Shown here: in pieces, positions 12,054 to 42,066 of the stretch | Layout of the letters: each line of letters opens with the position of its first letter | How positions within the stretch are numbered: position 1 is the first letter of the stretch | From: an uncultured Pseudomonadales bacterium | Lineage (GTDB): Bacteria > Pseudomonadota > Gammaproteobacteria > Pseudomonadales > CAZYQX01 | Assembly (NCBI GenBank): GCA_964649985.1 | Contig: CAZYQX010000006.1 | Location: 11,839-75,838, forward strand | Direction of reading: 5' to 3' | DNA: 64,000 nt | Position numbers and translations under genes: made by a program | Notes under the pieces: generated by a model | What the model was told of the DNA's origin: nothing | Seen by the model: the letters and a program-made list of their open reading frames with translations, nothing else | Databases searched by the model: none

Positions 12054-12722
12054 TCAGGGCGCGTCGACATCGGACGAGTTAGCCACTGCACCCGGGGCAC
12101 CCGCCTTGTCGGACAAGCCCTGCAGCAACCACTCCAGCGGCGCCTGTAAGCGATCCCCCAAGGCGGCCTGCCCAAGCGCTGGCCAATGGGTGGCAACATG
12201 CGGAAACGCTGAGCAGACCCCGCCCTCAAACGCAGGCAAACGCCCGGCCAGGTGCCTTGAGAACGAAGCTTCCAGGCTGGCCGCGCCAATCACACACTGC
12301 ACCATGGCCAATTGAGCCTGCAACGCCAGAGACGGGCTGAAGCCATCCCGCATCATCACCACGATGCCCTGTTCCAATACCTGCAGTGCATGGGGGCCTA
12401 ACCTGACACGGCCAAACAAGGCAACCCAGCCAGGCTCGGCTTGCAGGGCCGTGTGCATGTGGCGTGCAACATGGCGCATCCACGCCTGCCAATGCATGTC
12501 TGAAGCAGGCAACACATCCGCCTGTTGAATAAAGCGATCCAACATGGCGGCTTGCAGGGTGTCCCAATCCTTCACGTGCCGATAGACGGCCATCGGCGTC
12601 ACGCCCAGGGCTGAGGCAATACGGCGTATGCTGAGCTGCTCAAATCCGTGTTCCCGCGCCAGTTGCAGACCGGTTTCGATCAACAGCTCAAGGGACAAGG
12701 CGCGCTTTACTGGCCGGGACAC
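12054..12722 (-). CDS. TetR/AcrR-family transcriptional regulator with TetR_C-like domain
   Basis: HTH LSIRRIASALGVTPMAVYRHV; start overlaps the P450 stop. Confidence 0.92.
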   Translation of the reverse strand: MSRPVKRALSLELLIETGLQLAREHGFEQLSIRRIASALGVTPMAVYRHVKDWDTLQAAMLDRFIQQADVLPASDMHWQAWMRHVARHMHTALQAEPGWVALFGRVRLGPHALQVLEQGIVVMMRDGFSPSLALQAQLAMVQCVIGAASLEASFSRHLAGRLPAFEGGVCSAFPHVATHWPALGQAALGDRLQAPLEWLLQGLSDKAGAPGAVANSSDVDAP

Positions 12723-14512: not shown

Positions 14513-14524
14513 ACTCAGGCCTCG

Positions 14525-14562
14525 ATGTATACACCATATACACATGTATACACTGTATACAT
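14525..14562. promoter_or_regulatory. Tandem 19-bp palindromic operator, probably bound by the TetR protein
   Basis: ATGTATACA-C-TGTATACAT (14544-14562, perfect) abutting degenerate ATGTATACA-C-CATATACAC (14525-14543), 13 bp upstream of the P450 ATG. Confidence 0.75.
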
Positions 14563-14577
14563 TGTGCCGACAAGCCC

Positions 14578-17669: not shown

Positions 17670-17757
17670 AGTTGTTTCGCTCCGGAAAAGCTGATCGCGC
17701 GCAAAGTCGCACATTGTAACGCCTGTGTGCGTTACTGGCACTCGCTTGGTGATTTGT

Positions 17758-20447
<2,690 letters not shown>

Positions 20448-20451
<4 letters not shown>

Positions 20452-22778: not shown

Positions 22779-23108
22779 GCCGAAAGCCTCATTCGCTCGG
22801 CATATGTGGCAACAGCGTATCCCTGTATCACCCGTCCCCCCATCGCGACCCGCCACGCTGATGCAGAGCAGGTACTCACAACAGCATTTATTGGGCGCCG
22901 CTAAAAAGCGGCCCCCCCACAGAAAACACCACAAGACGCCAGAAACGCCGCTGACAGAGTAATGTGCTGACAGACACCCCGCGCATACACAGATCCATGC
23001 ACATACCGGGAAACGTCCAATAACCTATTGCCGCTTGTGGCTCAGCGCCAGATGTTCCCTAACATCCAAGCATAGCCCGAACATTCCTAGGCGCACGGGC
23101 CTATAGAT

Positions 23109-25439: not shown

Positions 25440-25644
25440 AGCACCCCCCAGGCATGCATCCGAGCACCATATGCCGATGCTGCAGCTCAGCCACACGCGC
25501 TTCTAACACATTTATTCTAGCGCCGCCCAACAACACTGCCCGCACATCCTGCGAATGCGCAAATATCCCGCTAGAATTGCTGCAGCAGCGCCCCCATCTA
25601 GGCTAGGATGCTGCCCCCAGACCGTTAGCTCACGCAGGCCCGAC

Positions 25645-26688
25645 ATGACCGAACTCACCATTACTCGCCCCGACGATTGGCACGTGCACTTGCGCGATGG
25701 CGAGGCCCTGCTCGACACGGTGAACGACATCTCGCGCTATTTCGGCCGCGCCATCTGCATGCCGAACCTGACACCGCCGGTGACCACCGCCGACGAGGCG
25801 CTGGCCTATCGCGAGCGCATTCTGGCCGCCCTCAAGCGCGCGCCCGAGGCGCACCACGGTTTTCAGCCCTTGCTGGTGCTGTACCTGACCGACCTCACCA
25901 GCCCGGAGGAAATCCGCCGCGCCGCCGCCACTGGCCATGTGTACGCCGCCAAGCTCTACCCGGCCGGCGCCACCACCAACTCGGCCGCCGGCGTCACCGC
26001 CATCGACAAGATCTACCCGGCACTGGAGGCCATGCAGGCCTGCGGCATGCCACTGTTGCTGCATGGCGAGGTGACTGACGCGGCCATCGACATCTTCGAC
26101 CGCGAAAAGAGCTTCATCGACCGCATCCTCAGCGACCTGGTGCAGCGCTTCCCGGCCCTGAAGATCGTGCTGGAGCACATCACCACCGGCGATGCCGTAG
26201 ATTTCGTGCGCAGTGCCCGCGAGGGCGTGGGGGCCACCATCACCGCCCACCACCTGCTCTACAACCGCAACCACATGCTGGTGGGCGGCATCCGCCCGCA
26301 CTACTACTGCCTGCCGATCCTCAAGCGCCGCGACCACCAGGAAGCGCTGATCCAGGCCGCCATCAGCGGCAATCCCAAGTTTTTCCTGGGCACCGACTCC
26401 GCGCCCCACGCCAAACACGCCAAGGAAGCCGCCTGCGGCTGCGCCGGCAGCTACACTGCCCACGCCGCCATCGAGCTGTACGCCGAGGCCTTCGAGCGTG
26501 CCGGCGCACTGGACAAGCTGGAAGGCTTCGCCAGCCACTTCGGCCCCGACTTCTACGGCCTGCCGCGCAACGCCGACCGCATCACCCTGCGCAAGGCCCC
26601 CTGGGAGGTACCGCAAACGCTCACCCTGGGCGACCATCCGCTGGTGCCCCTGTGCGCCGGTGAGACCCTGCAGTGGCAGGTGGTGTGA
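25645..26688 (+). CDS. pyrC: Dihydroorotase (type II)
   Basis: [29 protein letters not shown]. Confidence 0.97.
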
Positions 26689-27374
26689 TGAGCGAACCCC
26701 TGACCATGGCCGAGGCCGAGGCCTATCTCGACCCGGATCAGAAGAGCCCCCTGGCACGGCGCTTCCGTGGCTTTCTGCCGGTGGTGGTGGATGTGGAAAC
26801 CGGCGGATTCAACGCACGCACCGACGCCATCCTGGAAGTGGCCGCCACCACCCTCAATATGGGCGAGGATGGCATCTTAGTGCCAGATCAACACTTTGAG
26901 TTCCACATCGCCCCCTTCCCGGGTGCCAACGTGGAACAGGCGGCACTCGATTTCACCGGCATCGATCCCTACAGCCCGGATCGGGAAGCCGAAGCCGAGA
27001 GCGAGGCCTTCACCAAGCTGTTCCGCGAGGTGCGCCACGCGGTGCGCCAGCACGGCTGCACCCGGGCCATCCTGGTGGGCCACAATGCCAGCTTTGACCT
27101 GGGCTTTCTGAACGCGGCGGCGGAGCGCGCCAACATCAAGCGCAACCCCTTCCACCCCTTCAGCGCCTTCGACACCGCCAGCCTGGCCGCCTTGGCCTAC
27201 GGCCAAACGGTGCTGGCCAAGGCCTGCAAGACCGCCGGCATGGAGTTCGACGCGCGCCAGGCCCACAGTGCCGCCTACGACGCGCAGAAAACCGCCGAGC
27301 TGTTCTGCGGCATCGTCAACCGCTGGCGCGAGTTGGGGGGCTGGCCGCTGCCACCGCCCCCCGCCAAGGCCTGA
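26688..27374 (+). CDS. rnt: Ribonuclease T
   Basis: [38 protein letters not shown]; TGATG coupling to pyrC. Confidence 0.96.
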
Positions 27375-27394
27375 GCGACTCAGATGCACAAACA

Positions 27395-27421
27395 AAAACG
27401 GGCGCCATCGGCGCCCGTTTT
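27395..27421. terminator. Bidirectional terminator between rnt and acs
   Basis: AAAACGGGCGCC-atc-GGCGCCCGTTTT. Confidence 0.85.
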
Positions 27422-27434
27422 GCGTTAGCTCGGC

Positions 27435-29372
27435 TCAGGTATTCAGGCGGTGTGCAATCAGGCTGTCCACTACACTGGGGTCGGCCAGGGTGGAGGTATC
27501 ACCCAGCGTATCCAGCTCGTTGCAGGCGATCTTGCGCAGGATGCGGCGCATGATCTTGCCCGAACGGGTCTTCGGCAGGCCGGGCGCGAACTGCAGCAGG
27601 TCGGGCTTGGCGATCGGGCTGATCTCCTGGGAGACGAACTCGCGCAGTTCCGCCGCCAGGGCGGAAGAGGCTTCCACGCCATGCATCAGGGTGACGAACA
27701 CGTAGATGCCCTGGCCCTTGATGTTGTGTGGATAGCCCACCACACCGGCCTCGGCCACCGCCGGGTGCAGCACCAGCGCCGACTCGATTTCGGCCGTGCC
27801 CAGGCGGTGACCCGACACGTTGAGCACGTCATCCACCCGGCCGGTGATCCAGTAGTAGCCATCCTCATCGCGGCGGGCACCATCGCCGGTAAAATACATG
27901 CCCGGGTAGGTGCTGAAGTAAGTCTGCACCATGCGGGCGTGATCGCCGTAGACGGTGCGGATCTGGCTGGGCCAGCTGCTGGTGATCACCAGGTTGCCTT
28001 CGCAGGCGCCCTCCAACAGCTTGCCGTCGTTGTCGACGATGGCGGGCTGCACGCCGAAGAAGGGGCGTGTGGCCGAGCCGGGCTTCAGCGCCGTGGCGCC
28101 CGGCAGCGGGGTGATCAATACCGAGCCGGTCTCGGTCTGCCACCAGGTGTCGACAATCGGGCAGCGCTCCTCACCCACCACCTTGTGATACCACTCCCAG
28201 GCCTCGGGGTTGATGGGCTCCCCCACGCTACCCAGCAGGCGCAAGCTGCTGCGGGAGGTGTTGCGGACAAACTCGTCCCCCTGCGCCATCAGGGCGCGAA
28301 TGGCGGTGGGCGCGGTGTAGAAGATGTTCACCTGGTGCTTGTCGATCACCTGCCAGAAGCGCGACGCATCCGGATAGGTGGGCACACCCTCGAACATCAG
28401 CGTGGTGGCGCCATTGGCCAGGGGGCCGTACAGGATGTAGCTGTGGCCGGTGATCCAGCCCACATCGGCGGTGCACCAGTAAATCTCGCCCGGGCGATAG
28501 TCGAACACGTAATGGTGGGTCATCGCCGCGCCCAGCAGGTAGCCTGCCGTGGTGTGCAGCACCCCCTTGGGCTTGCCGGTGGAGCCGGAGGTGTAGAGAA
28601 TGAACAGCGGGTCTTCGCTGTCCATGGGCTCGGCCGGGCAGTCACTGCCCACATGCGCCACCGCCTCGTGATACCACACATCGCGCTTGGGGTCCCAGGC
28701 CACCGGGTGGCCGGTGCGGCGCACCACCAGCAGGGTGTGCACATTGGGGCACTGGCCCAGGGCCATATCGGCATTGGCCTTGAGCGGCACCTGGCGGCCA
28801 CCGCGCACGCCCTCATCGGAGGTGATCACCACCTGGCAGTCAGAGTCAAGAATGCGATCTTTCAATGCGTCCGGCGAGAAGCCGCCAAACACCACCGAGT
28901 GAATGGCGCCGATGCGGGCGCAGGCCAGCATGGCGTACGCGGCCTCGGGGATCATCGGCATGTAGATGCACACCCGATCGCCCCTCTTCACACCGCGTGC
29001 CTTCAGCACATTGGCCAATCGGCACACCTGTTCGTGTAGCTGGCCATAGGTGATGTGGGCCTGCTGGGAGGGTTCGTCGCCCTCCCAGATGATGGCCACA
29101 TCCTGGGCGCGGGCCGGCAAATGGCGGTCGATACAGTTTTCGGTGATATTGAGCTGGCCGCCGTCGAACCAACGCGCCTCGCCCTGGCTGAAATCGAACT
29201 GGCACACGCTGTCGAAGGGTTTACGCCAGCTGAGGAAGCTGTTGGCCTGCTCCGCCCAGAAAGCCTCAGGCGCCTCAATGGAGCGCCGGTACATGGCGTG
29301 GTACTGTTCGTCAGTCAGGTAAGTGGCGTGCTTGACGTGCTCGGGAACGGGATAGAGCTTGGCGTCGGCCAT
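27435..29372 (-). CDS. acs: Acetyl-CoA synthetase
   Basis: [30 protein letters not shown]. Confidence 0.97.
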
Positions 29373-29585
29373 GGGCGATCCTTGTGCAATCTTATTCGGC
29401 AAAAACAGGCACAAAGGATAGCGTGTTAGGGCGACAACTGCACGACCCTGCAGCAGGACAGTGGCACAGGCATGAAAAGTCCCTTCAGTGAAGTGATTCG
29501 TCCTTCACCTGGCGCGCGAGAATGGCATCAGAGGGAGCTTTACCCGCCCCCCTGGAGGGAGGCGGGCAACAGACGATCAGGCGAC

Positions 29586-29966
29586 TCAGGCCACCTGAAC
29601 CGGGATCGCGTTGGCCGCGTGATCCACGGTGTTGTCCGGGTTCATGTAGATCAGGCGAGGCTTGAAGTTGATCAGTTCAGCCGCCGTGTACATGGCATAG
29701 GCGCAGATGATGAGGATATCGCCCTCACCCGCTTTGTGCGCCGCCGCACCGTTCACGGAGATGATGCCCGAGCCCTCTTCACCGCGAATCGCGTAGGTGG
29801 TGAAGCGCTGGCCATTGCTCACGTTGTAGATCTGGATCTGCTCGTACTCCTGGATGCCCGACATATCCAGCAGGCGGCCGTCGATGGCGCAGGAGCCTTC
29901 GTAATCCAGCACCGCATGGGTTACCACAGCGCGATGGAGTTTGGCTTTGAGCATGATGCTGTGCAT
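29586..29966 (-). CDS. panD: Aspartate 1-decarboxylase
   Basis: [14 protein letters not shown] cleavage site, NGAAAH. Confidence 0.97.
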
Positions 29967-29994
29967 GGTACTAGCCTCCAGGGACAGCCAAGAA

Positions 29995-30855
29995 TCAGTG
30001 GGACTCGCTCAACACCACGGGCACGTTGTCGATCAGACGCGCGCGACCCAGAAATGCTGCAGCAAGAATAATCATATCAGTATCATACGGGCGCGCCTCG
30101 TCCAAGGTCTTGGCCTGGCGCACACTGAAGTAATCCCGGCGGAACCCTGCCTGCTCCAGCTGCTGCTGGGCTTCGTCCTCGATGGCCTTGAAATCCCTGC
30201 GGCCAGCCTTCAACTGCTCCACCGCCCAGTTCAGGCTGCGGTACAACTGCGGCGCCACCGCACGCTCGGCTTCACTCAGATAGCCATTGCGGGAACTCAG
30301 CGCCAAGCCATCCGCCGCGCGCGCAATGGGCGCAGGCGTGATGGTGATGGGAATGCACAGATCTTCCACCATGCGGCGGATCACCGCCAGCTGCTGGTAG
30401 TCTTTCAGGCCGAACACCGCCTCGTCCGGCTGCACGATGTTGAACAGCTTGCTCACCACCGTGGTCACACCCCGGAAGTGACCAGGGCGGCTGGCACCGC
30501 ACAGCACGTCGGTCATCACCGGCACTTCCACCACCGTCTGGTGCTTCATGCCGTTGGGGTACATCTCCTGCTCCTCGGGGCAGAACAGGTAGTCCACCCC
30601 GGCGGCCACCAGGCGCGCCATGTCTTCTTCCAGGGTGCGGGGATACTGGGACCAGTCTTCGTTAAGCGCAAATTGCAGCGGGTTGACGAAGATCGACACC
30701 ACCACCACATCGCAATTCTGCTGCGCCAGCGTCACCAGCTCCAGGTGGCCGTCGTGCAGATTGCCCATGGTGGGCACAAAGCCAATGCGCTTGCCAGCCA
30801 GACGCTCGGCATTGAGCGCGGCGCGAATCTCCAGAAAGCGCTGAAATACCTGCAT
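29995..30855 (-). CDS. panC: Pantoate-beta-alanine ligase
   Basis: [39 protein letters not shown]. Confidence 0.97.
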
Positions 30856-30997
30856 CGACCTCAACCCCACAAAGCACCCGTTGGCTGGCGCGAGTTTACA
30901 CGCCACACCCGGCACTGCCAATCAAGCTTTGGCGCACGAAAAACATGCATTTGTTACACCTCAGGGTATTGCCGAAACGGCCATCCCTGCGGTGGGC

Positions 30998-31789
30998 CTA
31001 CTTGAACGAGTGCTCCGGCCCCGGAAAAATACCCGCCTTCACCTCGGCTACATAGGCCTCCAGGGCCAGCTTGATCTCCCCGGTCTCGGCCAGATAGTTC
31101 TTGGAGAACTTCGGCGAGCGCGGCGAAAGCCCCAGCAGGTCATACACCACCAACACCTGGGCATCGGTGTCGGCGCCGGCGCCTATCCCCACCACCGGGA
31201 TGCGCAACTGGCGGGTGACTTCCGCCGCCAGGCTGGAGGGCACACACTCCAGCACCAGCATGTCGGCCCCCGCGGCCTCCAGTGCCTTGGCGTCCTCGAT
31301 AATGGCCTGGGCCTGATCGGAACCGCGCCCCTGCACCTTAAAACCACCCAATTTGTTCACCGACTGCGGAGTCAAGCCCAGGTGGGCACACACCGGCACC
31401 CCGTTCTGGGCCAGCCGGGTGTAGGTTTCGCACAGCCAGCTGCCGCCTTCGAGCTTCACCATATGCGCCCCGGCCTGCATCAGCCGGGCCGCATTTTCCA
31501 GCGCCTGCTGGGGGGTGTGGTAGGCCATGAAGGGCATATCGGCCACGATCAGCGAGCGCGGCCCGCCGCGCTTGACGCACGCCGTGTGGTAGGCCATTTC
31601 CTCCACCGACACCGGCACCGTGCTGTCGTGCCCCTGGATCACGTTGCCCAGGGAATCCCCCACCAGAATCACCTCGACCCCAGCATCGGAAGCCAGGCGC
31701 GCAAACGAGGCGTCATAGGCGGTGACCACAGCGAATTTGTCGCCATTGGCCTTCATTTGCCCGAGTGTACTGAGCGTGACGGTTTTCAT
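30998..31789 (-). CDS. panB: 3-methyl-2-oxobutanoate hydroxymethyltransferase
   Basis: [33 protein letters not shown]. Confidence 0.97.
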
Positions 31790-32457
31790 CGCGGTGATTG
31801 TCCCGGGTTGAAGTAGTGGCGGCCATGCTCGATGGTCAGCAGATAATCGAGCAACTGGCGATAATCATCATCGCAGTGCGCAAAATCTATGCGCTCAGCA
31901 TTCACGATCAACAATGGCGCGCCTTCATAGTAGTGAAACAGACGTGCATAGGCATCGTTCAGCTGCTCCAGGTAAGCGCGCTCTATACTGCGCTCAGCCT
32001 CAGACCCGCGCTCTCGGATGCGCTCGAACAACACATCCACCGGCGCCTGCAAATAGACCACCAGATCAGGGCGCGCTGCCTCAGGGGCAATTTTAGCGTA
32101 GATCTCTTCATACAGCGCCAGCTCGTCGGACGGCAACAGTACCTGGGCGAACAGGCGGTCCTTTTCCAGCAGGAAGTCGGAGACCAGGCCCGGCCCCGAC
32201 GCCGACTCGGCCAGCGCTTTCAACTGGCGCGCCCGCTGCAGCAGAAAAAACAGCTGTGTCTGCAGGCCAAACAGCGGCTTGTGGCGGTAAAAGCGCTCCA
32301 GGAAGGGGTTTTCCTCAGCACGCTCTCGCAACAGAGGCAACTGCAGGCTATCCGCCAGGCGCCGCGCCAGGGTGGTCTTGCCCACCCCGATAGGCCCCTC
32401 GATGGCGATATACCGTGGACGGATACAGCTCGGCTCCATCATCTCGCTCTCGTTCAT
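31786..32457 (-). CDS. Deoxynucleoside kinase (dNK family; start approximate)
   Basis: [14 protein letters not shown]-loop, [15 protein letters not shown], RGxxxE. Confidence 0.9.
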
Positions 32458-32592
32458 GCGGCTCCGGGCCCCAAGCCCCTGCGCCTTCTTACGACATCGC
32501 TGCAGGCTAGCCATACGCAGCGCGGTTATCCGCTTTTCATACCCTGGGAGAGCATGGCCCCCCGCACAGGCTCACACGCCTGCACGGAGGCC

Positions 32593-33093
32593 TCAACCGC
32601 CCCCGGCCTCGCCCTCCGCCAGCCGCACCAGCCCATCCCAACCACTGCTCTCCGCCACGGGCGACAGCGGTCGCCCGTCAGGCATGCAGATAGCGGGGGC
32701 GATCTCAACCAGCGGCTGCAACACAAAGTTGCGCACCAGCATCTGAGGGTGCGGCACGGTGAGCCTGGCGCTGTTGATGCACTGGTCACCATACAACAAC
32801 ACATCTAGATCGAGGGTGCGCGCGCCCCACCGCACCAGGCGCTCACGCCCCTGGCCATGCTCAATGCCTTGCAGAGCATCCAGTAGAGCTTCAGGTGCAA
32901 GGGAGGTATCCAGGCGCGCCACGGCATTCAGATAATCGGGTTGATCACCCGGCCCAATGGCGCGGCTGCGGTAGAAGGACGACACCGCTACAAGCCGGCA
33001 TTCAGGCAACACCGCCATAGCGTCTAGCGCCGCGCGCAGCTGCTGGGCGGGTTCCCCCAAATTGCCCCCCAGCCCGATATAGGCCGGAACCAC
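32593..33093 (-). CDS. folK: 2-amino-4-hydroxy-6-hydroxymethyldihydropteridine pyrophosphokinase
   Basis: AYIGLGGNLG, QPDYLNAV, RWGARTLDLD, LTVPHP. Confidence 0.96.
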   Translation of the reverse strand: MVPAYIGLGGNLGEPAQQLRAALDAMAVLPECRLVAVSSFYRSRAIGPGDQPDYLNAVARLDTSLAPEALLDALQGIEHGQGRERLVRWGARTLDLDVLLYGDQCINSARLTVPHPQMLVRNFVLQPLVEIAPAICMPDGRPLSPVAESSGWDGLVRLAEGEAGGG

Positions 33094-34499
33094 TAGGCTG
33101 GCCCGTTGCTATAGCGACGGTTGCGCCGCCGGGGCCGGCGCTTGCGAGCAGCGCCCTCACCACGTTCGGCATCCCGCGCCGCATGCATCAGCTGCTCGCG
33201 ATTTTCTGGCGCCCCGCGCTGGTACTCGGTCCACCACTTGCCGAGGCCACCGGTATTCTCACCGGCCGCTTCGCGCAGCAGCAGGAAATCATAGGCCGCA
33301 CGAAAGCGCGGGTGGGCAAACGTAGCCTCCGCACGTGCGCCCTGGCGGCGCGGCAAGCGCGGTTGCAGCTCCCAGATTTCCCGCAGCGGGATGGAGAAGC
33401 GCTTGGGAATGGTAACGAAGTCGCCCTGATCCAGCAGCACTTCGTGGGCCGCACGCTGGAAGGCCACAGCGGGTGCATCACCCTCGGCCTCGAAGCGCTT
33501 GCACAGGCGTTGCTGGGCAGGCCACAGCAGCGCGGCATACAGGAAGGCCGGGGTGACCGACTTGCCCTGGTGGATGCGCTCATCCGTGTTGCGCAGGGCC
33601 GCCTGGATAATGCCCAGTCCGTAAGGGTCGCCCTCGCGGATGGCCGCCTCGGTCATCGGGAACAACGGCTCAAACAGGCCGTATTGGCGCATCAGCGCAA
33701 AGGTTTCCACCCCGTGCCCGCACATCAACAGTTTGATCACCTCATCAAACATGCGTGCGGCGGCCACATCTTGCAGCAACTCAGCCAAACGGGGTATCGG
33801 CTCGGCGGTGGTGGGTGCCAGGGCAAAATCCAGCTTGGCGGCAAAGCGCACCGCCCGCAGCATCCGCACCGGGTCTTCACGGTAGCGCCGCTCGGGGTCA
33901 CCGATGATGCGCAACACGCGATTGCGCAGATCGTCCATGCCGTTGGCGAAATCGTGCACGGTGAAGTCCTTCACCGTGTAGTACAGCGCGTTGACGGTGA
34001 AATCGCGCCGGATGGCGTCTTCCTCCACCGTGCCATAAACGTTGTCGCGCAGCAGCATACCGCTCTCGGAAGCGGCGGCGGACTGGCCGCTCTTGCGGTC
34101 CTCGAACTCCTCAATCTCTTCCGCCGGGCCGTGATTGCCGCGAAAGGTGGTCACCTCGATGGTCTCAGCCCCACACATCACATGCACGATGCGAAAGCGC
34201 CGGCCGATGATGCGCGAGCGGCGGAACAACCCACGCACCTCTTCCGGGGTGGCGTTGGTGGCCACGTCGAAATCCTTGGGGTGTTTGCCCAACAGGAGGT
34301 CACGCACGCCACCGCCCACCAGATAGGCCTCGAAACCGCCTTTCTGCAGGCCGTAGAGCACATCCAGTGCGCCCCGGCTGATGTGCTTGCGGGAGATGGG
34401 GTGCTCGTCGCGCGACAGCACACGGCGCTGGGGCAACGGTTCGCTGCGACCACCGGAGAAAGGCAGGCGTTCGCTAAGATTTTTAAGCCATTTCAGCAT
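33093..34499 (-). CDS. pcnB: Poly(A) polymerase I
   Basis: LVGGGVRDLLLG, KDFDVAT, GRRFRIVHV, RRDFTVNAL, EDPVRMLRA, RFRAAYDFLLLR. Confidence 0.97.
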   Translation of the reverse strand: MLKWLKNLSERLPFSGGRSEPLPQRRVLSRDEHPISRKHISRGALDVLYGLQKGGFEAYLVGGGVRDLLLGKHPKDFDVATNATPEEVRGLFRRSRIIGRRFRIVHVMCGAETIEVTTFRGNHGPAEEIEEFEDRKSGQSAAASESGMLLRDNVYGTVEEDAIRRDFTVNALYYTVKDFTVHDFANGMDDLRNRVLRIIGDPERRYREDPVRMLRAVRFAAKLDFALAPTTAEPIPRLAELLQDVAAARMFDEVIKLLMCGHGVETFALMRQYGLFEPLFPMTEAAIREGDPYGLGIIQAALRNTDERIHQGKSVTPAFLYAALLWPAQQRLCKRFEAEGDAPAVAFQRAAHEVLLDQGDFVTIPKRFSIPLREIWELQPRLPRRQGARAEATFAHPRFRAAYDFLLLREAAGENTGGLGKWWTEYQRGAPENREQLMHAARDAERGEGAARKRRPRRRNRRYSNGPA

Positions 34500-34616
34500 G
34501 CGGCGCGACGAGGCATCCCTGGATCAGAGTGGTGACGGATTAAAATCCGCCCAAGTCTACCACAACGCCACCCCACACCGCATAGACCACCTACCGCGCA
34601 GGCCCAGGCCTGCGTC

Positions 34617-34813
34617 GAAAGACCGGGGGCGACCGCCCCCATCCATGCCTTGTGAGTTCTTCTTGTGCTGGAGAATCTTATTATTGTTGAGGTCGTTTTT
34701 ATTCTTTATTGTCGTTTTTGGCGGGTTATCAAGGAACCGCTTCTTCTTGTTTTGCTGTCAACCCGATTTTTATTCTTATTGGGCTGATGCGCTGTTATTT
34801 TTATGCTTGCGCG
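34617..34813 (-). ncRNA. CrcZ-like Hfq/Crc-sequestering small RNA (ends estimated)
   Basis: Six AANAANAA clusters (34657-64, 34678-88, 34696-706, 34741-51, 34767-80, 34795-802), sigma-54 promoter upstream, terminator downstream, directly upstream of pcnB. Confidence 0.78.
34625..34640 (-). terminator. Hairpin terminating the CrcZ-like RNA
   Basis: Minus strand GGGGGC-ggtc-GCCCCC then GGTCTTT; second hairpin CGCAGGC/GCCTGCG at 34597-34614. Confidence 0.55.
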
Positions 34814-34823
34814 AAATAATCAA

Positions 34824-34840
34824 AGCACGCCCCATGCCAA
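34824..34840 (-). promoter_or_regulatory. Sigma-54 (-24/-12) promoter
   Basis: Minus strand TTGGCATGGGGCGTGCT: GG and GC separated by exactly 10 nt. Confidence 0.8.
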
Positions 34841-34915
34841 CACACCCCACCCCCTGAAAGATCAGCACCTTAGCGTTTGTCAAGTTAGATTTTAGCAGCC
34901 GGCAGCACGCACAAC

Positions 34916-34964
34916 CGTTACGCCAGGCCACGCCCGGGTAACACCCCTCCGGGGAGAGCGTTAC
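34916..34964 (-). promoter_or_regulatory. CbrB-type upstream activating sequences
   Basis: Minus strand GTAACG-N15-TGTTAC-N16-GTAACG, about -103 to -151 from the predicted +1. Confidence 0.65.
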
Positions 34965-34981
34965 CCCCCGTATTCACAAAC

Positions 34982-35013
34982 AAAAAAAGGGCGGCACAGC
35001 AAGCCCACCCTTT
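34982..35013 (-). terminator. Rho-independent terminator after porin paralog 2
   Basis: Minus strand AAAGGGTGGGC-loop-GCCGCCCTTTTTTT. Confidence 0.75.
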
Positions 35014-35074
35014 CCAAGCAGAAGCAACACGTTATCCGCGTAGAGAACCCCAGCTGAAGCACACAATCGCACTG

Positions 35075-36481
35075 CTAGAACACAGAGTCCACACCGAAGG
35101 AGACGATTTGGTTACTATCACCCAGCTCTGCGCGAGCTTGATCCACCCCCGTTACCCCGGGGTAGGCGTCAAACACACCCAGGGTGCCATTCATGTCGTA
35201 GTAATAGGTGGATTCAAGCTTCAGGGCCACACTATCCAAAAGCTCGTAGCGCATGCCCAGCGTGATGGACTTCGATTCCTGCATGACCTCCATACCAGCG
35301 CCCGCCATACCACTCATCAGATCGCGCTTGGAAAAACCCGCCTGCGAGAGCATGCCGCCTGCCAGCCCATCATAAAAATCGTAAGCCCGATCTTCGTCAT
35401 CCTCACCTGACGTGAGCACCGCAAAGCTGGCATAGGGCATGAACTTCCCGACGCGGTAGCCCAGGGTTGCATATGCACTGGTGCCACCAACCCAAAAAGT
35501 ATCGTCATCAGCCTGCACATCCACCACTTCGGTCAGCGCCAACCACTGGCCATCGTCATAGCGCATCCCCAACGAAGCGTAGCCAAAGCCTACCGGCACT
35601 TGCTCACCCAGCCCCGGCATGTCGAACACCACCTCAGGCACGCCACTGTAAGACGCCCTCAGCGTCCACGCCCCCACGCTCGAGGTCAGCGCCATCGCCC
35701 ACAGATCTCGCACCTGGATACCCAAGCCTTGCACGGTTTCATCCATGGTGCCGACCCCAAACTGAACCTCGTGGCGCCACCCCCCCGAAGTGAAGGCATA
35801 GAGGGTGTCGACACCGCTGTAATTATTCAAACCGACCAGGTAGGACTCCATGGGAGGACGTACCCAGGGATAGGTGTACCCCACATCCATGGACTCCGAA
35901 TACATATAGAAGGGAGCACGCAAACGCCCTGCGCGTACCATCCAGCCATCAGCTACCTTGAAACGAAGAAAAGCCCACTCGGCGTCTATAGCGTAGTCTT
36001 CGTAGCCGTTGGCAGTGAGCTGTAACACCGCATCCACACTGTCGTTGACCCTGTAATCGAACTGCACACCCGCCATGGTATCGGAGCGGAACTGCTCATC
36101 ATCATCAAGTCCGATGGCTGAGAAATCGACATTTTTATCCGCATTCACCACATAGGCCGACATGAAGCCATGCACCTGAAGCTTTTCTTTCTGCTCTTCG
36201 AGCGTGCGCCTGACCAGCTCGTCGCGCTTCTTGGACTTCTTATCGACCTCAGTGAGCGCCGTCTCCAGCGCCGCGACTCGCTGCGTCACCGTGGAAGACG
36301 AGTGAGGCGCGCTCTGTGTCTGCAGCAGATCGAGTTCAGACTGCAGCGCACGCACCTCCTGCTGATGGCGCGCCGCCATCTTTTGCATCTCGACCATTAA
36401 CTCATCCACAGTTAAGGCCACCGCCGGCATTGCCGCCGCCCCCAACACCACCCCAAACACCATCTGTTTTGGCCGGATCAT
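35075..36481 (-). CDS. Outer-membrane beta-barrel (porin-like) protein with N-terminal coiled coil, paralog 2
   Basis: Signal peptide, heptad-like TVDELMVEMQKM, amphipathic strands, C-terminal SFGVDSVF; collinear with 37106-38683. Confidence 0.75.
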   Translation of the reverse strand: MIRPKQMVFGVVLGAAAMPAVALTVDELMVEMQKMAARHQQEVRALQSELDLLQTQSAPHSSSTVTQRVAALETALTEVDKKSKKRDELVRRTLEEQKEKLQVHGFMSAYVVNADKNVDFSAIGLDDDEQFRSDTMAGVQFDYRVNDSVDAVLQLTANGYEDYAIDAEWAFLRFKVADGWMVRAGRLRAPFYMYSESMDVGYTYPWVRPPMESYLVGLNNYSGVDTLYAFTSGGWRHEVQFGVGTMDETVQGLGIQVRDLWAMALTSSVGAWTLRASYSGVPEVVFDMPGLGEQVPVGFGYASLGMRYDDGQWLALTEVVDVQADDDTFWVGGTSAYATLGYRVGKFMPYASFAVLTSGEDDEDRAYDFYDGLAGGMLSQAGFSKRDLMSGMAGAGMEVMQESKSITLGMRYELLDSVALKLESTYYYDMNGTLGVFDAYPGVTGVDQARAELGDSNQIVSFGVDSVF

Positions 36482-36618
36482 GCTCATTCCTTTTCCCTGC
36501 ATGGAAGCCGCGCACCTAGCGGGCGGGCATTTAATTCAGTATAGCCAGCCCGCGCGCCAAATCAATTTAGAACCAACATTATCTTTTGTCGAGATCAGCC
36601 CGGTAACGTACCCGAAAC

Positions 36619-36655
36619 AAAAAAAGGGTGGGGGCCGCGAGGCCACCCACCCTTT
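36619..36655 (-). terminator. Rho-independent terminator after the small binding-protein gene
   Basis: Minus strand AAAGGGTGGGTGGCC-tcgc-GGCCCCCACCCTTTTTT. Confidence 0.75.
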
Positions 36656-36672
36656 CAAGCAAGGACTATCGA

Positions 36673-37092
36673 CTAAGGTACTTTCAACAGCACCTTAACT
36701 GAAGCATCCACCGACCCGGCATCCACATAGCCGATCGCGCCCGGCGTGGAGGCCACAGCGGCCTTCACTTCAGCACTATCCGCCACCGCTTTGGGCGGCT
36801 TACCCTTGCCGGTGAAAATTACCTGGGACCAGTAAGCCTTCAGCTGAGAGGCATTTTTCTGTGCCACCTTGGTGTAGAACTCGTCCCGCACCTCGGAGCC
36901 TTCCTCCTGATCGATCACGGTCACCTTGGAGCCGTCAGACAGGGAAGAAGACTTGCCCAGGAAGATATTGGCCGCTTCCTGAGCAGTCAGGGCCGAAGCC
37001 CCGGAGGCCGGATTGACGATCACCGCCACCTCGGCATTTGCAATACCTGCTGCCAGAAGACCGGCCGCCAGAGCAATACGTCGCTTCATCAT
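36673..37092 (-). CDS. Small exported periplasmic-binding-protein-like protein (PstS/PBP-like family)
   Basis: Signal peptide then AEVAVIVNP, NIFLGK, YWSQVIFTGKGKPP, PGAIGYV, a motif set typical of the porin-associated small PBP-like family. Confidence 0.75.
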   Translation of the reverse strand: MMKRRIALAAGLLAAGIANAEVAVIVNPASGASALTAQEAANIFLGKSSSLSDGSKVTVIDQEEGSEVRDEFYTKVAQKNASQLKAYWSQVIFTGKGKPPKAVADSAEVKAAVASTPGAIGYVDAGSVDASVKVLLKVP

Positions 37093-37105
37093 GGCTGATC
37101 TCTCC

Positions 37106-38683
37106 TTAGAACACCGAGTCTACGCCGAAAGACACGATCTGGTTGCTGTCGCCCAGTTCCTCACGCGTTTGATCATAGTCACCCGTGCTGAAGACGCCCT
37201 TTGTGCCATTGAAATCATAGGCATAGGTGGATTCAAGCTTAAGTGCCACATTTTCCAACACATCGTAGCGAATGCCCAGCGTGATGGATTTTTGCTCTTG
37301 CATAATCTCAAGACCTGGAAGAGTCTGGCCTAAACCAGCCACATACAACCCATTGTTGAAATCAGCCTTGGTAGCCGTCGCCGCAGATGCGTCATATGCT
37401 GCCGCTGCCAAATTTCCAGCTGCATCCAAAACGGCGTTTCGAGCGGCGGTCGCTGCCGCAACTCCCCCACCGATGTTTGCGGCATATTGCGCATCCGCCA
37501 GGGCCAGGGTACCAGCATCATTGCGGGCAGCATCAATCACACCAGCACGAGTAGCGCCCTGGTAGAAATCAAACGCCTTGTCTTCATCATCTTCACCCGT
37601 CATGGTCACGGCATAACTGGCGTAAGGCATAAATTTGCCTATGCGGTAACCCAAGGTGAAGTACGCGTTAGTGTTGCCCAAAATCGGGCTAGCATCGTCC
37701 ACGCCAAAATCCACCACCTCGGCAATCGCCAGCCACTGACCGTCGTCATAGCGACCACCCAGAGAGGCGTAGTAGGTGGAGACCGGGTCATATTCGTTCA
37801 GCTCCAGAGACGGCAGCAGGGTGTAGGAACCACGCAGCGTCCAGGGGCCGACACTAGAGGTCATCGACATACCCCAACGATCACGCACCTTCACAGTAAT
37901 GCCCTGAGCGTCTTCATCCATGGTGCCAACATAGAACTGTACGTCGTGGCGCCAATCACCCGTGTTGAAGGAATAGATAGTGTCCACGCCGTCATAGTTG
38001 CCCAGACCGACCACATAGGTCTCCATCGGCGGGCGCACCCAGGGGTAGGTGTAACCTACGTCCATGGACTCGGAGTACATATAGGTGGGCGAGCGCAGGC
38101 GGCCAGTGCGCACCATCCAGTTGTCCTGCAGCTTGAAGCGCAGGAAGGCCCACTCGGCGTCGATATCGTAGTTTTCGTAGCCGTTGGAGGTCAGCTGCAG
38201 CACCGCGTCCACGGTGTCGTTGACCTTGTAGTCGAACTGCACACCGGCCATGGTATCGGAGCGGAACTGCTCGTTGTCTTCGACACCAGTGTTGGAGAAG
38301 TCGACGTTTTTATCTGAATTGACGGCATAAGCCGACATGAAGCCGTGTACCTGGAGCTTCTCTTTCTGCTCTTCAACGGTGCGCTTGACCATATCGTCGC
38401 GCTTCTTGGACTTCTTGTCGACGTCAGCGACCTTCTTCTCCAGCTCGTCCAGGCGCTTGCTAACGGTGGGGGCTGGCGCTTCTTCGGCCTCGGCAACCGG
38501 GGCGGCCTTGGTTTGAGCGCGCTTGAGCTGATTGATCTGGGACTTCAGCTGCTTGAGCTCCTGCTCATGGCGCTGATTCATTTTCTGAATCTCAACCATC
38601 AGCTCGTCTACGGTGGCGGCGGTGGCCGGCATAGCAGTCACTGCCAAGGCAGCACCACATGCGATGTGTCGCAGGCTTTTCAC
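37106..38683 (-). CDS. Outer-membrane beta-barrel (porin-like) protein with N-terminal coiled coil, paralog 1
   Basis: GAGGA RBS before GTG; signal peptide; TVDELMVEIQKM coiled coil; C-terminal SFGVDSVF. Confidence 0.75.
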   Translation of the reverse strand: MKSLRHIACGAALAVTAMPATAATVDELMVEIQKMNQRHEQELKQLKSQINQLKRAQTKAAPVAEAEEAPAPTVSKRLDELEKKVADVDKKSKKRDDMVKRTVEEQKEKLQVHGFMSAYAVNSDKNVDFSNTGVEDNEQFRSDTMAGVQFDYKVNDTVDAVLQLTSNGYENYDIDAEWAFLRFKLQDNWMVRTGRLRSPTYMYSESMDVGYTYPWVRPPMETYVVGLGNYDGVDTIYSFNTGDWRHDVQFYVGTMDEDAQGITVKVRDRWGMSMTSSVGPWTLRGSYTLLPSLELNEYDPVSTYYASLGGRYDDGQWLAIAEVVDFGVDDASPILGNTNAYFTLGYRIGKFMPYASYAVTMTGEDDEDKAFDFYQGATRAGVIDAARNDAGTLALADAQYAANIGGGVAAATAARNAVLDAAGNLAAAAYDASAATATKADFNNGLYVAGLGQTLPGLEIMQEQKSITLGIRYDVLENVALKLESTYAYDFNGTKGVFSTGDYDQTREELGDSNQIVSFGVDSVF

Positions 38684-38847
38684 GTTGTAATCCTCATGTT
38701 CCCCAGTTGGAGCCCCGCTGCGCCATTCCGGCATCTAACATGGGCCTCTTGAGAGACTAGCAGGCATTTTTGGTCGCGCCAGTCATTTCGGCACATTTTT
38801 AGCGCCCATCATGTAAAATCGCACAAAAGACTCGCAACCCAATGATT

Positions 38848-38858
38848 AAGAACAACAA
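38848..38858 (+). promoter_or_regulatory. CA motif (Hfq/Crc-type) next to the thioesterase RBS
   Basis: AAGAACAACAA immediately 5' of AGGAG and 15 nt before the ATG. Confidence 0.55.
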
Positions 38859-38873
38859 TTTAGGAGCATAAAA

Positions 38874-39302
38874 ATGCCCCGTATCACGATCAATCCGCCT
38901 GCTGAACTGCCCTTCCAAACGGAGATCCAGGTTTACGTGAACATGATCAATCGGGGCAATCACCTCGGTAATCACAACCTGATTGAGGTGCTGAACGAAG
39001 CGCGCAACCGCTATCTGGACAGCCTGGGGCTGGACACCATGAACATCGCGGGGCACGGTCTCATCAACGCCGACCTGGCGGTGGAATACAAATCTGAGGC
39101 GGGTTACCCGGAAACCCTGAAGGTTGAAGTGGGGACAGGCGACTTCAACAAATACGGCTGCGATTTCTTCTATAGAGTCAGCGCCATGAGCGATGGCCGC
39201 CTGATTGCAGTCGCCAAGACCGGCATGTTGCTATTTGACTACAGCACCAAGAAGCTCGCCCCTGCACCGGAGGATTTCGCCACTTTTTTTGTGGCACCAT
39301 AA
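38874..39302 (+). CDS. Acyl-CoA thioesterase (hotdog fold, YbgC/FcbC-like)
   Basis: INRGNHLGN, EARNRYL, ADLAVEYKSEA, AKTGMLLFDY. Confidence 0.85.
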   Translation: MPRITINPPAELPFQTEIQVYVNMINRGNHLGNHNLIEVLNEARNRYLDSLGLDTMNIAGHGLINADLAVEYKSEAGYPETLKVEVGTGDFNKYGCDFFYRVSAMSDGRLIAVAKTGMLLFDYSTKKLAPAPEDFATFFVAP

Positions 39303-39346
39303 ACACCCCAATCACCTTGGAGTGATCGTGCTTTGCACATGGAGTA

Positions 39347-39376
39347 TTGACACCTCACCTCAATTCAACCGATAAT
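39347..39376 (+). promoter_or_regulatory. Sigma-70 promoter of rpsT
   Basis: TTGACA-N18-GATAAT. Confidence 0.65.
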
Positions 39377-39419
39377 CCCGCGCCTTAATCTTTTGACCAG
39401 TTTCCTGAGGAGTCACCCA

Positions 39420-39686
39420 GTGGCGAATTCAGCTCAAGCCAAGAAGCGCGCTCGCCAAGCTGAAAAGCATCGCGCTCACAACGCCAGCCAGCGTTCCATG
39501 ACGCGTACCTACATCAAGCGCATTGTTGCCGCCATCGCGACCGGTAACAAAGAGCAAGCTCAAGCCGCTTACGCCGCTGCAGTGCCCGTGATCGACCGCA
39601 TGGCCGACAAAGGCATCATCCACAAGAACAAGGCCGCTCGTCACAAGAGCCGCCTGAGCGCCCAGATCAAAGCCCTCGCTGCTTGA
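39420..39686 (+). CDS. rpsT: 30S ribosomal protein S20
   Basis: GTG start after GAGGAG; [25 protein letters not shown]. Confidence 0.98.
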
Positions 39687-39692
39687 TATCTG

Positions 39693-39738
39693 GCCAGCCA
39701 TAAAAAAACCGCCTTCGGGCGGTTTTTTTATGGCTGGC
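39693..39738. terminator. Bidirectional terminator with 21-bp perfect stem
   Basis: GCCAGCCATAAAAAAACCGCC-ttcg-GGCGGTTTTTTTATGGCTGGC. Confidence 0.92.
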
Positions 39739-39802
39739 GCCCCCACCAAGACGGGCAACCGCTCCATTCAAGCGGTAAGTAGAGCCCGCCCGAGATCGAC
39801 CA

Positions 39803-41734
39803 CTAATGTATGCCGAACGCGGTTCCAGTGGCGGAATCCCAGCGCCCCTTGTCCCCAACAACAGTTGACTGGGAGAAGCCAACGACTAAGCCCGCAAGGA
39901 CTCGCCTGACCGAAGCCACATCTCCACTATCACATGCAAGCTGCATACTTTTCAGCTGTTCGCTCAACTCAGGCCAGGAGAAGAACGGCTCCCTTGCCAA
40001 ACAGATCAGCGGGTGGTGAGTCCCCTCGCTGTTCTCCCCTATCAGCAATTCTTCATAGAGCTTTTCACCAGGGCGCAAGCCTGTCACACGAATTTCAATA
40101 TCGCCCGTTGGGTGAGCATCATCTTTAACCGTGAGTCCGGCAAGCCGGATCATGCCCCTGGCAAGATCCATGATCTTTACCGGCTCCCCCATATCCAGGA
40201 CGAACACCTCGCCACCCGATGCCATGGCCCCAGCCTGAATAACCAACTGCGCCGCCTCAGGGATCGTCATGAAATAGCGCGTCATTTCGGTATGCGTCAC
40301 GGTGAGCGGCCCGCCCTCAGCAATTTGCCGGCGAAATAACGGCACCACAGAACCGGAGGAACCCAATACATTGCCGAAACGAACCATTGCAAAACAGGTA
40401 GACGCAGAGCGTTCGGCATAGGCCTGCAGAACCAGCTCTGCACAGCGCTTCGAAGCCCCCATTACATTGGTTGGGCGAACAGCCTTGTCTGTGGAGACCA
40501 AAACAAAGCGCTCCACGCCATTCGCCATTGCCACATCAGCACACACCCAGGTACCAAACACGTTGGTTCTGATGCCTTCTATGGGGTTAGCCTCAACAAG
40601 CGGAACGTGCTTATAGGCCGCCGCATGAAAGAGTGTTTGGACGCGATTGGAACGCACAATATCGTCCATGCGAGCCCTGTCACCCACATTGCCCAACAGC
40701 GGAACCAGTTCAATCTCCAAACCACGTCGGAGACACACAGCTTCAAGCTCCTGGTGGATGGAATAAAGGGAAAACTCAGAGGCATCCAATAACAGCAGCT
40801 TGGCAGGGCCAGACAACAGGATCTGCCTCGCCAGCTCACTGCCAATTGAGCCTCCAGCTCCCGTCACCAAAACCACTTTGCCCTTGATACCGCGGGCCAT
40901 CAGCTCAGGCACAGGCTCAACGCAGTCACGCCCCAGGATGTCTTCGATACGAATTTCGCGAATCTGGGACACTGCCAAACGGCCACTTACCAGATCATTC
41001 AGGCAGGGAACTGTCTTGATCTCCACACCAAGTCGGTTAATCTCTGCAACAATCTCCGATCGCCGGCGCTGGGTCATGCGCGGCATCGCCAGCAGCACCT
41101 CACTGATGTTCAGATCAGCCAGTACAGACGCCATGCGCTCAGGGTTATAGACCCTCAAACCAGCCACATCCTGCCGTCTAGCCTGGGCACTGTCATCAAA
41201 AAACGCCATGGGCATGAAGTCTGGACTGTTGCGCAAAAACACCGCCAGCGCTCGCCCGGTTTCTCCCGCGCCATAGATCGCCACCCGCCTGCGCGGCTTA
41301 CCTGAGACGTGATCAAGAGAGCGCACAACACCCCGCGCCGAAAACCTGCTTGCCATCAGGTACAGCACGGCTAAACCACAGTAGATAACTACAGAGGTGC
41401 GTGGCACCCCCTCTACTCGCGTCACACCAATCACGGTAAAAAGTAAAACGGACGAAATCGCCACGCCCTGCACAATGGTGAGCACCACTTTTTCTTCCAG
41501 GTAGCGCACAACGGCTCGGTACAAGCCCAAACGAACAAAGGCCGGCACGGACAATATAGGAATAAGAACGAAGAGCCACCAGAAATGCCCAACCTGGGGC
41601 GTGAGGGTCCCAAAACGGAGTGCCACGGCGCACCAAAAGGCAAATGGCAACAGCAGCGAGTCTGCCAGCACCATCAGCAGGCGCTTTCTCTCACGCGGAA
41701 GCGCCAGTAACCAACGCGACAACCTCAGCAACAT
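39803..41734 (-). CDS. Membrane UDP-GlcNAc 4,6-dehydratase, WbpM/CapD-like
   Basis: N-terminal TM helices, IYGAGETG, VTGAGGSIGSEL, HAAAYKHVP, STDKAV, RFGNVLGSSGSV, RPGEKLYEEL. Confidence 0.93.
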   Translation of the reverse strand: MLLRLSRWLLALPRERKRLLMVLADSLLLPFAFWCAVALRFGTLTPQVGHFWWLFVLIPILSVPAFVRLGLYRAVVRYLEEKVVLTIVQGVAISSVLLFTVIGVTRVEGVPRTSVVIYCGLAVLYLMASRFSARGVVRSLDHVSGKPRRRVAIYGAGETGRALAVFLRNSPDFMPMAFFDDSAQARRQDVAGLRVYNPERMASVLADLNISEVLLAMPRMTQRRRSEIVAEINRLGVEIKTVPCLNDLVSGRLAVSQIREIRIEDILGRDCVEPVPELMARGIKGKVVLVTGAGGSIGSELARQILLSGPAKLLLLDASEFSLYSIHQELEAVCLRRGLEIELVPLLGNVGDRARMDDIVRSNRVQTLFHAAAYKHVPLVEANPIEGIRTNVFGTWVCADVAMANGVERFVLVSTDKAVRPTNVMGASKRCAELVLQAYAERSASTCFAMVRFGNVLGSSGSVVPLFRRQIAEGGPLTVTHTEMTRYFMTIPEAAQLVIQAGAMASGGEVFVLDMGEPVKIMDLARGMIRLAGLTVKDDAHPTGDIEIRVTGLRPGEKLYEELLIGENSEGTHHPLICLAREPFFSWPELSEQLKSMQLACDSGDVASVRRVLAGLVVGFSQSTVVGDKGRWDSATGTAFGIH

Positions 41735-41927
41735 AAACTCTTCTCCCATCCCTATTTCTACCCACGGTGAGACGTCACGGCAAGAAGACTCACTAGGGAA
41801 GCCCCGCTAAGTCACGGCAACCTTGCTGGCATAGTTGAAAACATGATCACAGCAGCCCACCAAGGATACCGGACGCCTAAGACCCCCGAAACGTGAACGC
41901 GCAGCGGTGAGCACGATGATCATTTGC

Positions 41928-41948
41928 GGCTAAAAATCATTTTTAGCC
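41928..41948. promoter_or_regulatory. Perfect 21-bp palindrome upstream of the dehydratase gene
   Basis: GGCTAAAAAT-C-ATTTTTAGCC. Confidence 0.45.
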
Positions 41949-42066
41949 CTAGGCGTTGCTCCCTGCCCCGGCAGGCACCGCCTCCATTGCACGCTAGCGC
42001 AACCGCTTTCACCTAGCCATCATAGACTTTTAGGAGATTGCACGGGCTGCGACAGCGCCTCCAGCA

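Follow-up and report, generated by a model that had tools for sequence, protein, structure and literature searches.

A probable CrcZ-type small RNA gene with a CbrB-type sigma-54 promoter, unlinked from cbrAB, in an uncultured wastewater gammaproteobacterium

Here we describe a region that is probably the gene of a CrcZ-type Hfq/Crc-sponge RNA, transcribed from a CbrB-type promoter and unlinked from cbrAB. It lies in a 64-kb stretch of DNA (64,000 nucleotides) that was analysed as a whole and is referred to as the window. A sigma-54 promoter element and an array of three activator subsites, both of them unique in the window, stand at conserved positions upstream of an A-rich RNA in synteny with pcnB, and cbrAB is absent from the window. 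In Pseudomonas, the order in which carbon sources are used is governed by CrcZ-type RNAs, which titrate Hfq and Crc. CrcZ itself has an RpoN promoter that works with CbrB and IHF; it is also made by read-through from the cbrB promoter, and it sequesters Hfq via A-rich motifs (PMC8395346, PMC8871633). The CbrAB-CrcZ system has been described as exclusive to Pseudomonadaceae (PMC6296734, PMC8871633).

The sigma-54 promoter element

A sigma-54 -24/-12 element, TGGCATGGGGCGTGCT, is present on the minus strand at positions 34839-34824. Exactly 10 nt separate its GG (34838-34837) from its GC (34826-34825), giving GG-N10-GC in a TGGCAC-N5-TTGCW-like context, as is expected for sigma-54. A sequence-only reading of this DNA had described the element as correctly spaced, and the spacing, coordinates and strand agree with that description. 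The element is the sole match to TGGCAYNNNNNNTGCW (TGGCAY-N6-TGCW) within the 64-kb window. Given that about 1.3 matches to TGGCAYN6TGCW are expected by chance over the whole window, the -24/-12 motif alone is not significant and constitutes weak evidence. When a profile was built from 55 promoters of related loci and used in an nhmmer search, its best match in the window was this same element; the match is weak (E = 0.035) and spans the -24/-12 element plus the 5' end of the RNA. In divergent strains the GG and GC are invariant, and the spacer positions 34829 and 34831 are the only ones that vary inside the element. A promoter scan of 34400-35200 found no sigma-70-like promoter. We infer that the promoter at 34839-34824 is of the sigma-54 type and would depend on RpoN. 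The only call made by a terminator scanner was a hairpin on the -24/-12 element, which we judged to be spurious.

The activator subsites

Upstream of the -24/-12 element, the minus strand carries three GTAAC/GTTAC subsites. Subsite 1, GTAACG (34964-34959), has orientation R; subsite 2, TGTTAC (34943-34938), has orientation F; and subsite 3, GTAACG (34921-34916), has orientation R. They start 125, 103 and 82 nt, respectively, upstream of the TGG of the -24 element. Together they form the array GTAACG-N15-TGTTAC-N16-GTAACG (34964-34916), with centre-to-centre distances of 21 and 22 bp and with 76 nt of spacer between subsite 3 and the -24/-12 element. Relative to a +1 at 34813 they span -151 to -103, in agreement with the coordinates and distances originally reported for them. 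A triple pattern of the form GTWAC-N14-20-GTWAC-N14-20-GTWAC occurs once in the window, and 0 of 100 dinucleotide-preserving shuffles produced any.

The published CbrB site reads TGTTAC-N12-14-GTAACA-N15-19-GTAACA in the order F1-R1-R2, with 20-25 bp between centres and the subsites on one helical face (PMC6296734, PMC8871633). Like published CbrB promoters of the Pseudomonas crcZ/crcY/PP2810 type, the window has three TGTTAC/GTAACA-type hexamers on one helix face upstream of GG-N10-GC, with centres 21-22 bp apart and hence within the published range. Its subsite 3, GTAACG, is identical to the R2 subsite 'GTAACg' of P. putida crcZ (PMC6296734). It differs from published CbrB promoters in its spacers of N15 and N16, in its orientation, which is R-F-R and not F-R-R, and in having no IHF consensus between the subsites and the promoter: no match to the IHF consensus WATCAANNNNTTR with at most one mismatch is present in 34840-34916, and the single match with two mismatches is unconvincing. 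The initial likening of the array to the CbrB site of crcZ thus stands as far as the hexamers and the spacing are concerned, but the pair on which it was based, TGTTAC-N16-GTAACG, corresponds by position to subsites 2 and 3 (R1-R2 in Pseudomonas) and not to F1-R1.

Elsewhere in the window, a second GTAAC-N10-GTTAC palindrome is found at 17716-17735, where argG meets a hybrid kinase gene. No sigma-54 element lies close to it, and it is probably a chance occurrence.

The A-rich RNA and its transcript

The CrcZ-like small RNA extends on the minus strand from 34813 to 34616, which amounts to ~198 nt from a start placed according to the -12 element to the first terminator. This terminator (34640-34616, minus strand) consists of the hairpin GGGGGCGGUCGCCCCC (34640-34625) followed by GGUCUUUC, which is a weak U-tract. 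A second, strain-variable hairpin, CGCAGGCCUGGGCCUGCG, follows on the same strand at 34614-34597 (-15.7 kcal/mol, z = -2.3). Between 34802 and 34657 the minus strand has 11 overlapping matches to AANAANAA, which form six clusters; the whole window has 51 such matches on both strands, so that 11 of the 51 fall within 146 nt on one strand. At least two of the clusters lie in hairpin loops of the predicted fold. Several A-rich AANAANAA motifs are therefore contained in one non-coding transcript, as is expected for a sponge RNA. A search with Rfam yielded neither CrcZ nor any other relevant family, whether at the gathering score or, for 34300-35200, at E<=10. We considered a 29-codon ORF that starts at 34646, in the 3' hairpins of the RNA, and rejected it as a coding gene, since its start lacks a suitably spaced ribosome-binding site and the ORF lies across the terminators.

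A discrete transcript is present at 34807-34582. It was recovered from wastewater metatranscriptome X11 as an assembled contig of 237 nt that lies on these positions with one mismatch (single run, unstranded) and includes the second hairpin. In this unstranded assembly the 5' boundary, 34807, falls 6 nt from the predicted +1 at 34813, and the 3' boundary falls ~35 nt beyond the first terminator hairpin. In 22001-42000 no other RNA piece of more than 40 nt matches at >=97% identity, and the same metatranscriptome search, at >=97% identity, gave no comparable RNA contig on pcnB or on the upstream ORFs. Two raw-read RNA runs of the same study, X17 and X18, yielded no reads in a sample of ~1/100 of their reads. 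The public runs that hold the window sequence are wastewater and aquatic metagenomes. Beyond 34582, the X11 contig has 11 extra letters (TCCTATATCGT, + strand) that match nothing in the window and may stem from an adapter, a chimera or an added tail.

Strain variation was read from related-strain contigs at ~93-99% identity. The changes miss the GG, the GC, the subsites and the A-rich motifs; the subsites are covered by one of these contigs, X9, in which they are unchanged. In the core of the RNA, 34616-34724, there is one change, and it falls at an N position of a AANAANAA motif. Strain X13 differs by 8 substitutions and 2 indels in the adjoining stretch 34592-34615. This pattern agrees with a functional promoter and with an RNA that is conserved as far as the first terminator.

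The gene that follows the RNA in strand order is pcnB, encoding poly(A) polymerase (33093-34499, minus strand; NCBIfam TIGR01942, 527 bits). It starts 83 nt beyond the end of the RNA contig at 34582, and folK, a nucleotide-kinase-like gene and panB come next. Pseudomonas has the same sRNA-pcnB-folK-panB gene order, and its RNA at the position before pcnB is a discrete sRNA (PMC8395346). With respect to the genomic position cbrB-crcZ-pcnB, the window has the pcnB-folK-panB side and lacks the cbrB side.

Related loci in other Gammaproteobacteria

Using the PcnB sequence as a query, we fetched 160 related loci from genome and metagenome collections. The closest retrieved relatives share only 58-59% PcnB identity with the window, and none lies above 59%, indicating that the lineage of the window is isolated in the collections searched and that there is no close outgroup with which to date the rearrangement. 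The relatives with the closest PcnB are Oleiphilaceae, Motiliproteus, Spongiibacteraceae, Zhongshania, Litorivivens, Microbulbifer and Halomonas, and not Pseudomonadaceae.

We looked for the promoter architecture in the 134 loci whose sequence upstream of pcnB is 700 nt or longer. In 54 of these, a strict sigma-54 consensus is accompanied by two or more GTTAC/GTAAC subsites that lie no more than 3 nt from -123, -102 and -80, as counted from the TGG of the -24 element; among them are loci from Zhongshania, Spongiibacter, Microbulbifer, Motiliproteus, Halomonas, Oleiphilaceae, Litorivivens and others. The modal subsite positions in the relatives are -122/-102/-80, compared with -125/-103/-82 in the window. 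Subsite 1 lies 120-124 nt upstream of the TGG in the relatives and is always F (49 of the 49 scored), so that subsite 1 of the window is inverted. Subsite 2 lies at 100-104 nt and is R in most loci and F in Motiliproteus, and subsite 3 lies at 78-81 nt. The order FRR, which is exactly the published CbrB arrangement, occurs in 30 related promoters and FFR in 7, and the others have partial patterns; R-F-R is absent from all 57. The promoter of Motiliproteus is F-F-R with cbrB adjacent, which shows that the orientation of subsite 2 can change while its position stays the same. Judged from these sequences, the comparison shows the position of the subsites to be conserved and their orientation not to be. 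This agrees with the model of one CbrB monomer per subsite put forward by Barroso et al., in which spacing counts more than subsite sequence and CbrB binds the subsites as monomers (PMC6296734). The spacer of the window is G-rich, unlike that of the marine loci, which is AT-rich and contains an IHF-like ATTGA motif.

Downstream of the promoter, the relatives have A-rich RNAs of ~100-500 nt with 7-18 AANAANAA matches per 300 nt. Several of these RNAs end in a ...CCUGGAUGGGGAA...UUCCCC terminator, and the motif that precedes it resembles GCAUGGAUGGGGGC of the window. The window shares with these unannotated A-rich sRNA genes, which lie between cbrB-like genes and pcnB in marine Gammaproteobacteria (L001-L161), the register of the promoter, the pcnB neighbour and the placement of the first A-rich motif ~15-25 nt into the RNA. 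With some of them, namely the sRNAs of L062, L013 and L005, it also shares the motif GGAUGGGG before the terminator hairpin. Loci from Alteromonas, Vibrio and Xanthomonas have neither the promoter architecture nor the A-rich RNA. When the 576-nt intergenic region was compared with 80 related loci by blastn, no similarity was found. Given this result and the profile E value of 0.035, homology is not claimable from alignment and rests on motifs, spacing and synteny. An Rfam scan of 11 related loci gave no CrcZ match.

A CbrB homologue lies directly upstream in all 51 of the promoter-bearing loci that have at least 2.2 kb of upstream sequence, and it ends 300-1340 nt before pcnB. These homologues have receiver, sigma-54 AAA+ and lid domains, and the regulators of Halomonadaceae have been named CbrB by a few submitters. 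Most of the relatives' cbrB genes are preceded by a gene for a kinase of ~980 aa with 11-14 TM-like segments and PAS, HisKA and HATPase domains, which is the architecture of CbrA.

The upstream side of the promoter

In the position that cbrB holds in the relatives, the window has a gene for a porin-like outer-membrane protein (35075-36502, minus strand), whose product is 65% identical to that of a porin-like paralogue at 37106-38734 (minus strand). The first of these genes ends in an intrinsic terminator at 35013-34982 (minus strand), a hairpin of -17.4 kcal/mol (z = -2.9) followed by UUUUUUU (U7). Both porin-like products have a signal peptide, an N-terminal coiled coil and a C-terminal ...SFGVDSVF, ending in Phe. 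Neither ORF has a direct sequence match in Pfam, NCBIfam or PDB, and distant homologues carry PF13609 Porin_4 or bear the name porin. Given the signal peptide, the coiled coil, the C-terminal Phe and these homologues, 'porin genes' is a reasonable label. The combination of coiled coil and barrel is reminiscent of the DcaP-type layout. Between the two genes lies a 139-aa ORF (36673-37092, minus strand) with a partial PBP_like_2 match (profile positions 90-190 of 267), whose product may be a truncated periplasmic binding protein.

The junction that runs from the porin gene through the terminator, the promoter and the sRNA to pcnB was recovered in independent assemblies (the X1 and X5 contigs and Logan contig L081). 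Since these contigs come from several samples and span the junction, it is no artefact of assembly.

No sigma-54 activator is encoded anywhere in the 64-kb window, and cbrAB is absent from the 29 kb upstream and the 34 kb downstream. A tblastn search of the window with CbrB returned receiver-domain matches only, and Pfam scans of the large ORFs on both sides and of the translated window ends revealed no cbrB. Likewise, none of rpoN, crc and hfq was seen in the 64-kb window. The sequence-only reading had placed a terminator at 34982-35013 and porin genes where cbrB would be expected, and had called the promoter orphaned from cbrAB. The hairpin with its U7 tract bears out the terminator, the paralogous ORFs with Porin_4 or porin-named homologues are in keeping with the porin genes, and the lack of any sigma-54 activator in the window, as against cbrB upstream in 51 of 51 relatives, upholds the orphaned state. 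With a terminator and porin-like genes in the place of cbrB, basal read-through from a cbrB promoter is impossible, and expression should thus depend entirely on the sigma-54 promoter.

The large upstream ORFs comprise the two porin-like paralogues, the PBP-like fragment, a polysaccharide cluster, a chemoreceptor and a P-type ATPase, and the other side has panBC, acs, pyrC, three 7TMR-DISM hybrid kinases and argG. The polysaccharide/O-antigen-type cluster (39803-61000) encodes glycosyltransferases, an ABC exporter ATPase, an asparagine synthase-like protein, a pyruvyl transferase, a sugar transferase and a PseB/FnlA-like dehydratase. The GC content of the cluster is as low as 44-48%, compared with 58-65% in the rest of the window, and points to horizontal acquisition. 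The three hybrid histidine kinases are encoded in tandem at 17758-25496 (minus strand), and each has 7TMR-DISMED2, 7TMR-DISM_7TM, HisKA, HATPase and receiver domains, which is the domain layout of RetS and LadS. At 12707-14638 (minus strand), DUF4345 and a cytochrome P450 are combined in one ORF, which adjoins a gene for a TetR-family regulator (12054-12722).

Comparison with CrcZ and proposed mode of expression

Like the gene of CrcZ in P. aeruginosa and P. putida (paralogues CrcY and CrcX), the RNA gene of the window lies directly before pcnB-folK-panB and has a sigma-54 promoter with CbrB-type subsites. As in CrcZ, the RNA has several A-rich AANAANAA motifs of the type bound by the distal face of Hfq (PMC8395346, PMC8871633). 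It differs from CrcZ (407 nt) in being ~200-230 nt and thus about half as long, and in escaping detection by the Rfam model. Unlike crcZ, its gene is not located beside cbrB, so that no cbrB-crcZ read-through transcript is possible. The hosts differ as well, that of the window being a wastewater gammaproteobacterium whose PcnB is <=59% identical to that of any retrieved relative.

We propose that sigma-54 RNA polymerase would bind the -24/-12 element at 34839-34824 and that a CbrB-type activator of the NtrC family would bind the three GTAAC/GTTAC subsites, two helical turns apart and about 80-125 bp upstream of the -24 element. This presumptive CbrB-type activator would be encoded outside the 64-kb window. 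It would open the complex, and transcription would start near 34813. The predicted product is an RNA of ~200-230 nt in which six A-rich (AANAANAA) clusters are displayed, some of them in hairpin loops. If it acts as CrcZ and CrcY do, the RNA would bind Hfq and Crc and would titrate Hfq (with Crc) off catabolic mRNAs, relieving carbon catabolite repression. With cbrB absent upstream and a strong terminator there instead, basal read-through expression would have been lost.

Other interpretations of the locus differ in the part of this proposal that they replace. The promoter and the RNA could be real with cbrAB lost or the site rewired, such that another sigma-54 activator reads the R-F-R array in response to a non-CbrA signal. 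We regard this as unlikely. It would account for the lack of cbrAB over 29 kb upstream and 34 kb downstream, for an R-F-R order that is unique among 57 related promoters, with subsite 1 inverted relative to 49 of 49 relatives, and for the failure to find an IHF site. However, the hexamers TGTTAC and GTAACG are perfect CbrB-type subsites at conserved positions and are retained in related strains. Moreover, the F-F-R array of Motiliproteus already departs from F-R-R with cbrB adjacent, and spacing outweighs sequence for CbrB, the monomers of which bind the subsites (Barroso et al., PMC6296734). A CbrB-type activator is the reading that we prefer.

If the sigma-54 promoter instead drove the pcnB-folK operon, the A-rich stretch would be a long regulatory 5' leader and not a separate sRNA. 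The weak U-tract (GGUCUUUC), an RNA contig that continues past the terminator to 34582, the start of pcnB only 83 nt farther on and the invariant linkage of sRNA and pcnB across taxa are all compatible with such a leader, which we nevertheless consider very unlikely: the RNA contig stops short of pcnB, the assembly contained no RNA contig for pcnB at >=97% identity, relatives have conserved both the terminator hairpin and the motif before it, and the Pseudomonas RNA at the same position is a discrete sRNA (PMC8395346). It is likewise very unlikely that the region is a relic decaying after removal of cbrAB by rearrangement, or a chance assembly of motifs with GGTAAC...GTTACC as a hairpin or REP-like element. 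Subsites 1 and 2 do form a palindrome that can fold at -18.8 kcal/mol, and similarity to relatives at the level of sequence is weak, but the palindrome folds no better than its shuffles (z = -0.6), the triple array never arises in shuffles, and its register to the -24 element agrees with 54 loci. In addition, the RNA is detected in situ, and strain variation avoids the functional positions. A CrcZ-type sponge RNA under a CbrB-type promoter is the interpretation that we consider probable.

Implications

The type of promoter and the class of RNA are both already known, and nothing in the locus is categorically new. What is new relative to the literature searched is the occurrence of the module far outside Pseudomonadaceae, the absence of its RNAs from Rfam and the existence, in this lineage, of an unlinked, re-oriented version. 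Since the same promoter grammar and an A-rich RNA occur at the same locus in many marine and wastewater Gammaproteobacteria, the published definition of the CbrB site, obtained in vitro and in vivo, is predictive for a much wider group than before. We tentatively raise the possibility, while leaning toward doubt, that the cbrA-cbrB-(A-rich sRNA)-pcnB module is an ancestral feature of a wide range of marine and wastewater Gammaproteobacteria and is not restricted to Pseudomonadaceae, and that the window, alone among ~50 natural cases, has an sRNA gene detached from its regulator genes and a re-oriented (R-F-R) array. The groups concerned would be Halomonadaceae, Spongiibacteraceae, Microbulbifer, Motiliproteus, Oleiphilaceae, the Litoricola group and others, with sRNAs that are absent from Rfam. 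If this is true, the detached sRNA would either be controlled by CbrB purely in trans, without basal expression from read-through, or be a sponge RNA captured by another sigma-54 activator.

The window can be regarded as a natural uncoupling experiment, in which the RNA gene retains its sigma-54 and activator sites and is transcribed in situ, but no longer has the cbrAB linkage or the read-through. For wastewater ecology, the RNA is probably a master switch that sets the substrate preference of an uncultured lineage.

Further arrangements among the related loci

A cbrA-like/cbrB-like pair together with an F-R-R sigma-54 promoter and an A-rich sRNA before pcnB can be seen in many marine Gammaproteobacteria other than Pseudomonadaceae, for example at L012:5300-6000, L002:5400-6000 and L018:4940-5900. 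Three loci (L014, L052 and L084) have two tandem sigma-54/subsite promoters, each of which is followed by an A-rich RNA; in L052 the promoters lie ~605 and 273 nt upstream of the pcnB match. The layout resembles that of a CrcZ/CrcY pair placed head to tail. The loci of the Litoricola/HIMB30 group (L033-L047, L078 and L100-L114) have a cbrB-like gene that follows a gluQ-like (tRNA-synt_1c) gene, without a cbrA-like kinase, and their subsites are ~10 bp apart (-136/-123/-113/-103). In L072, a single ORF (2166-4028) joins tRNA-synt_1c with PAS-HisKA-HATPase, and could represent either a fusion or an artefact of ORF calling.
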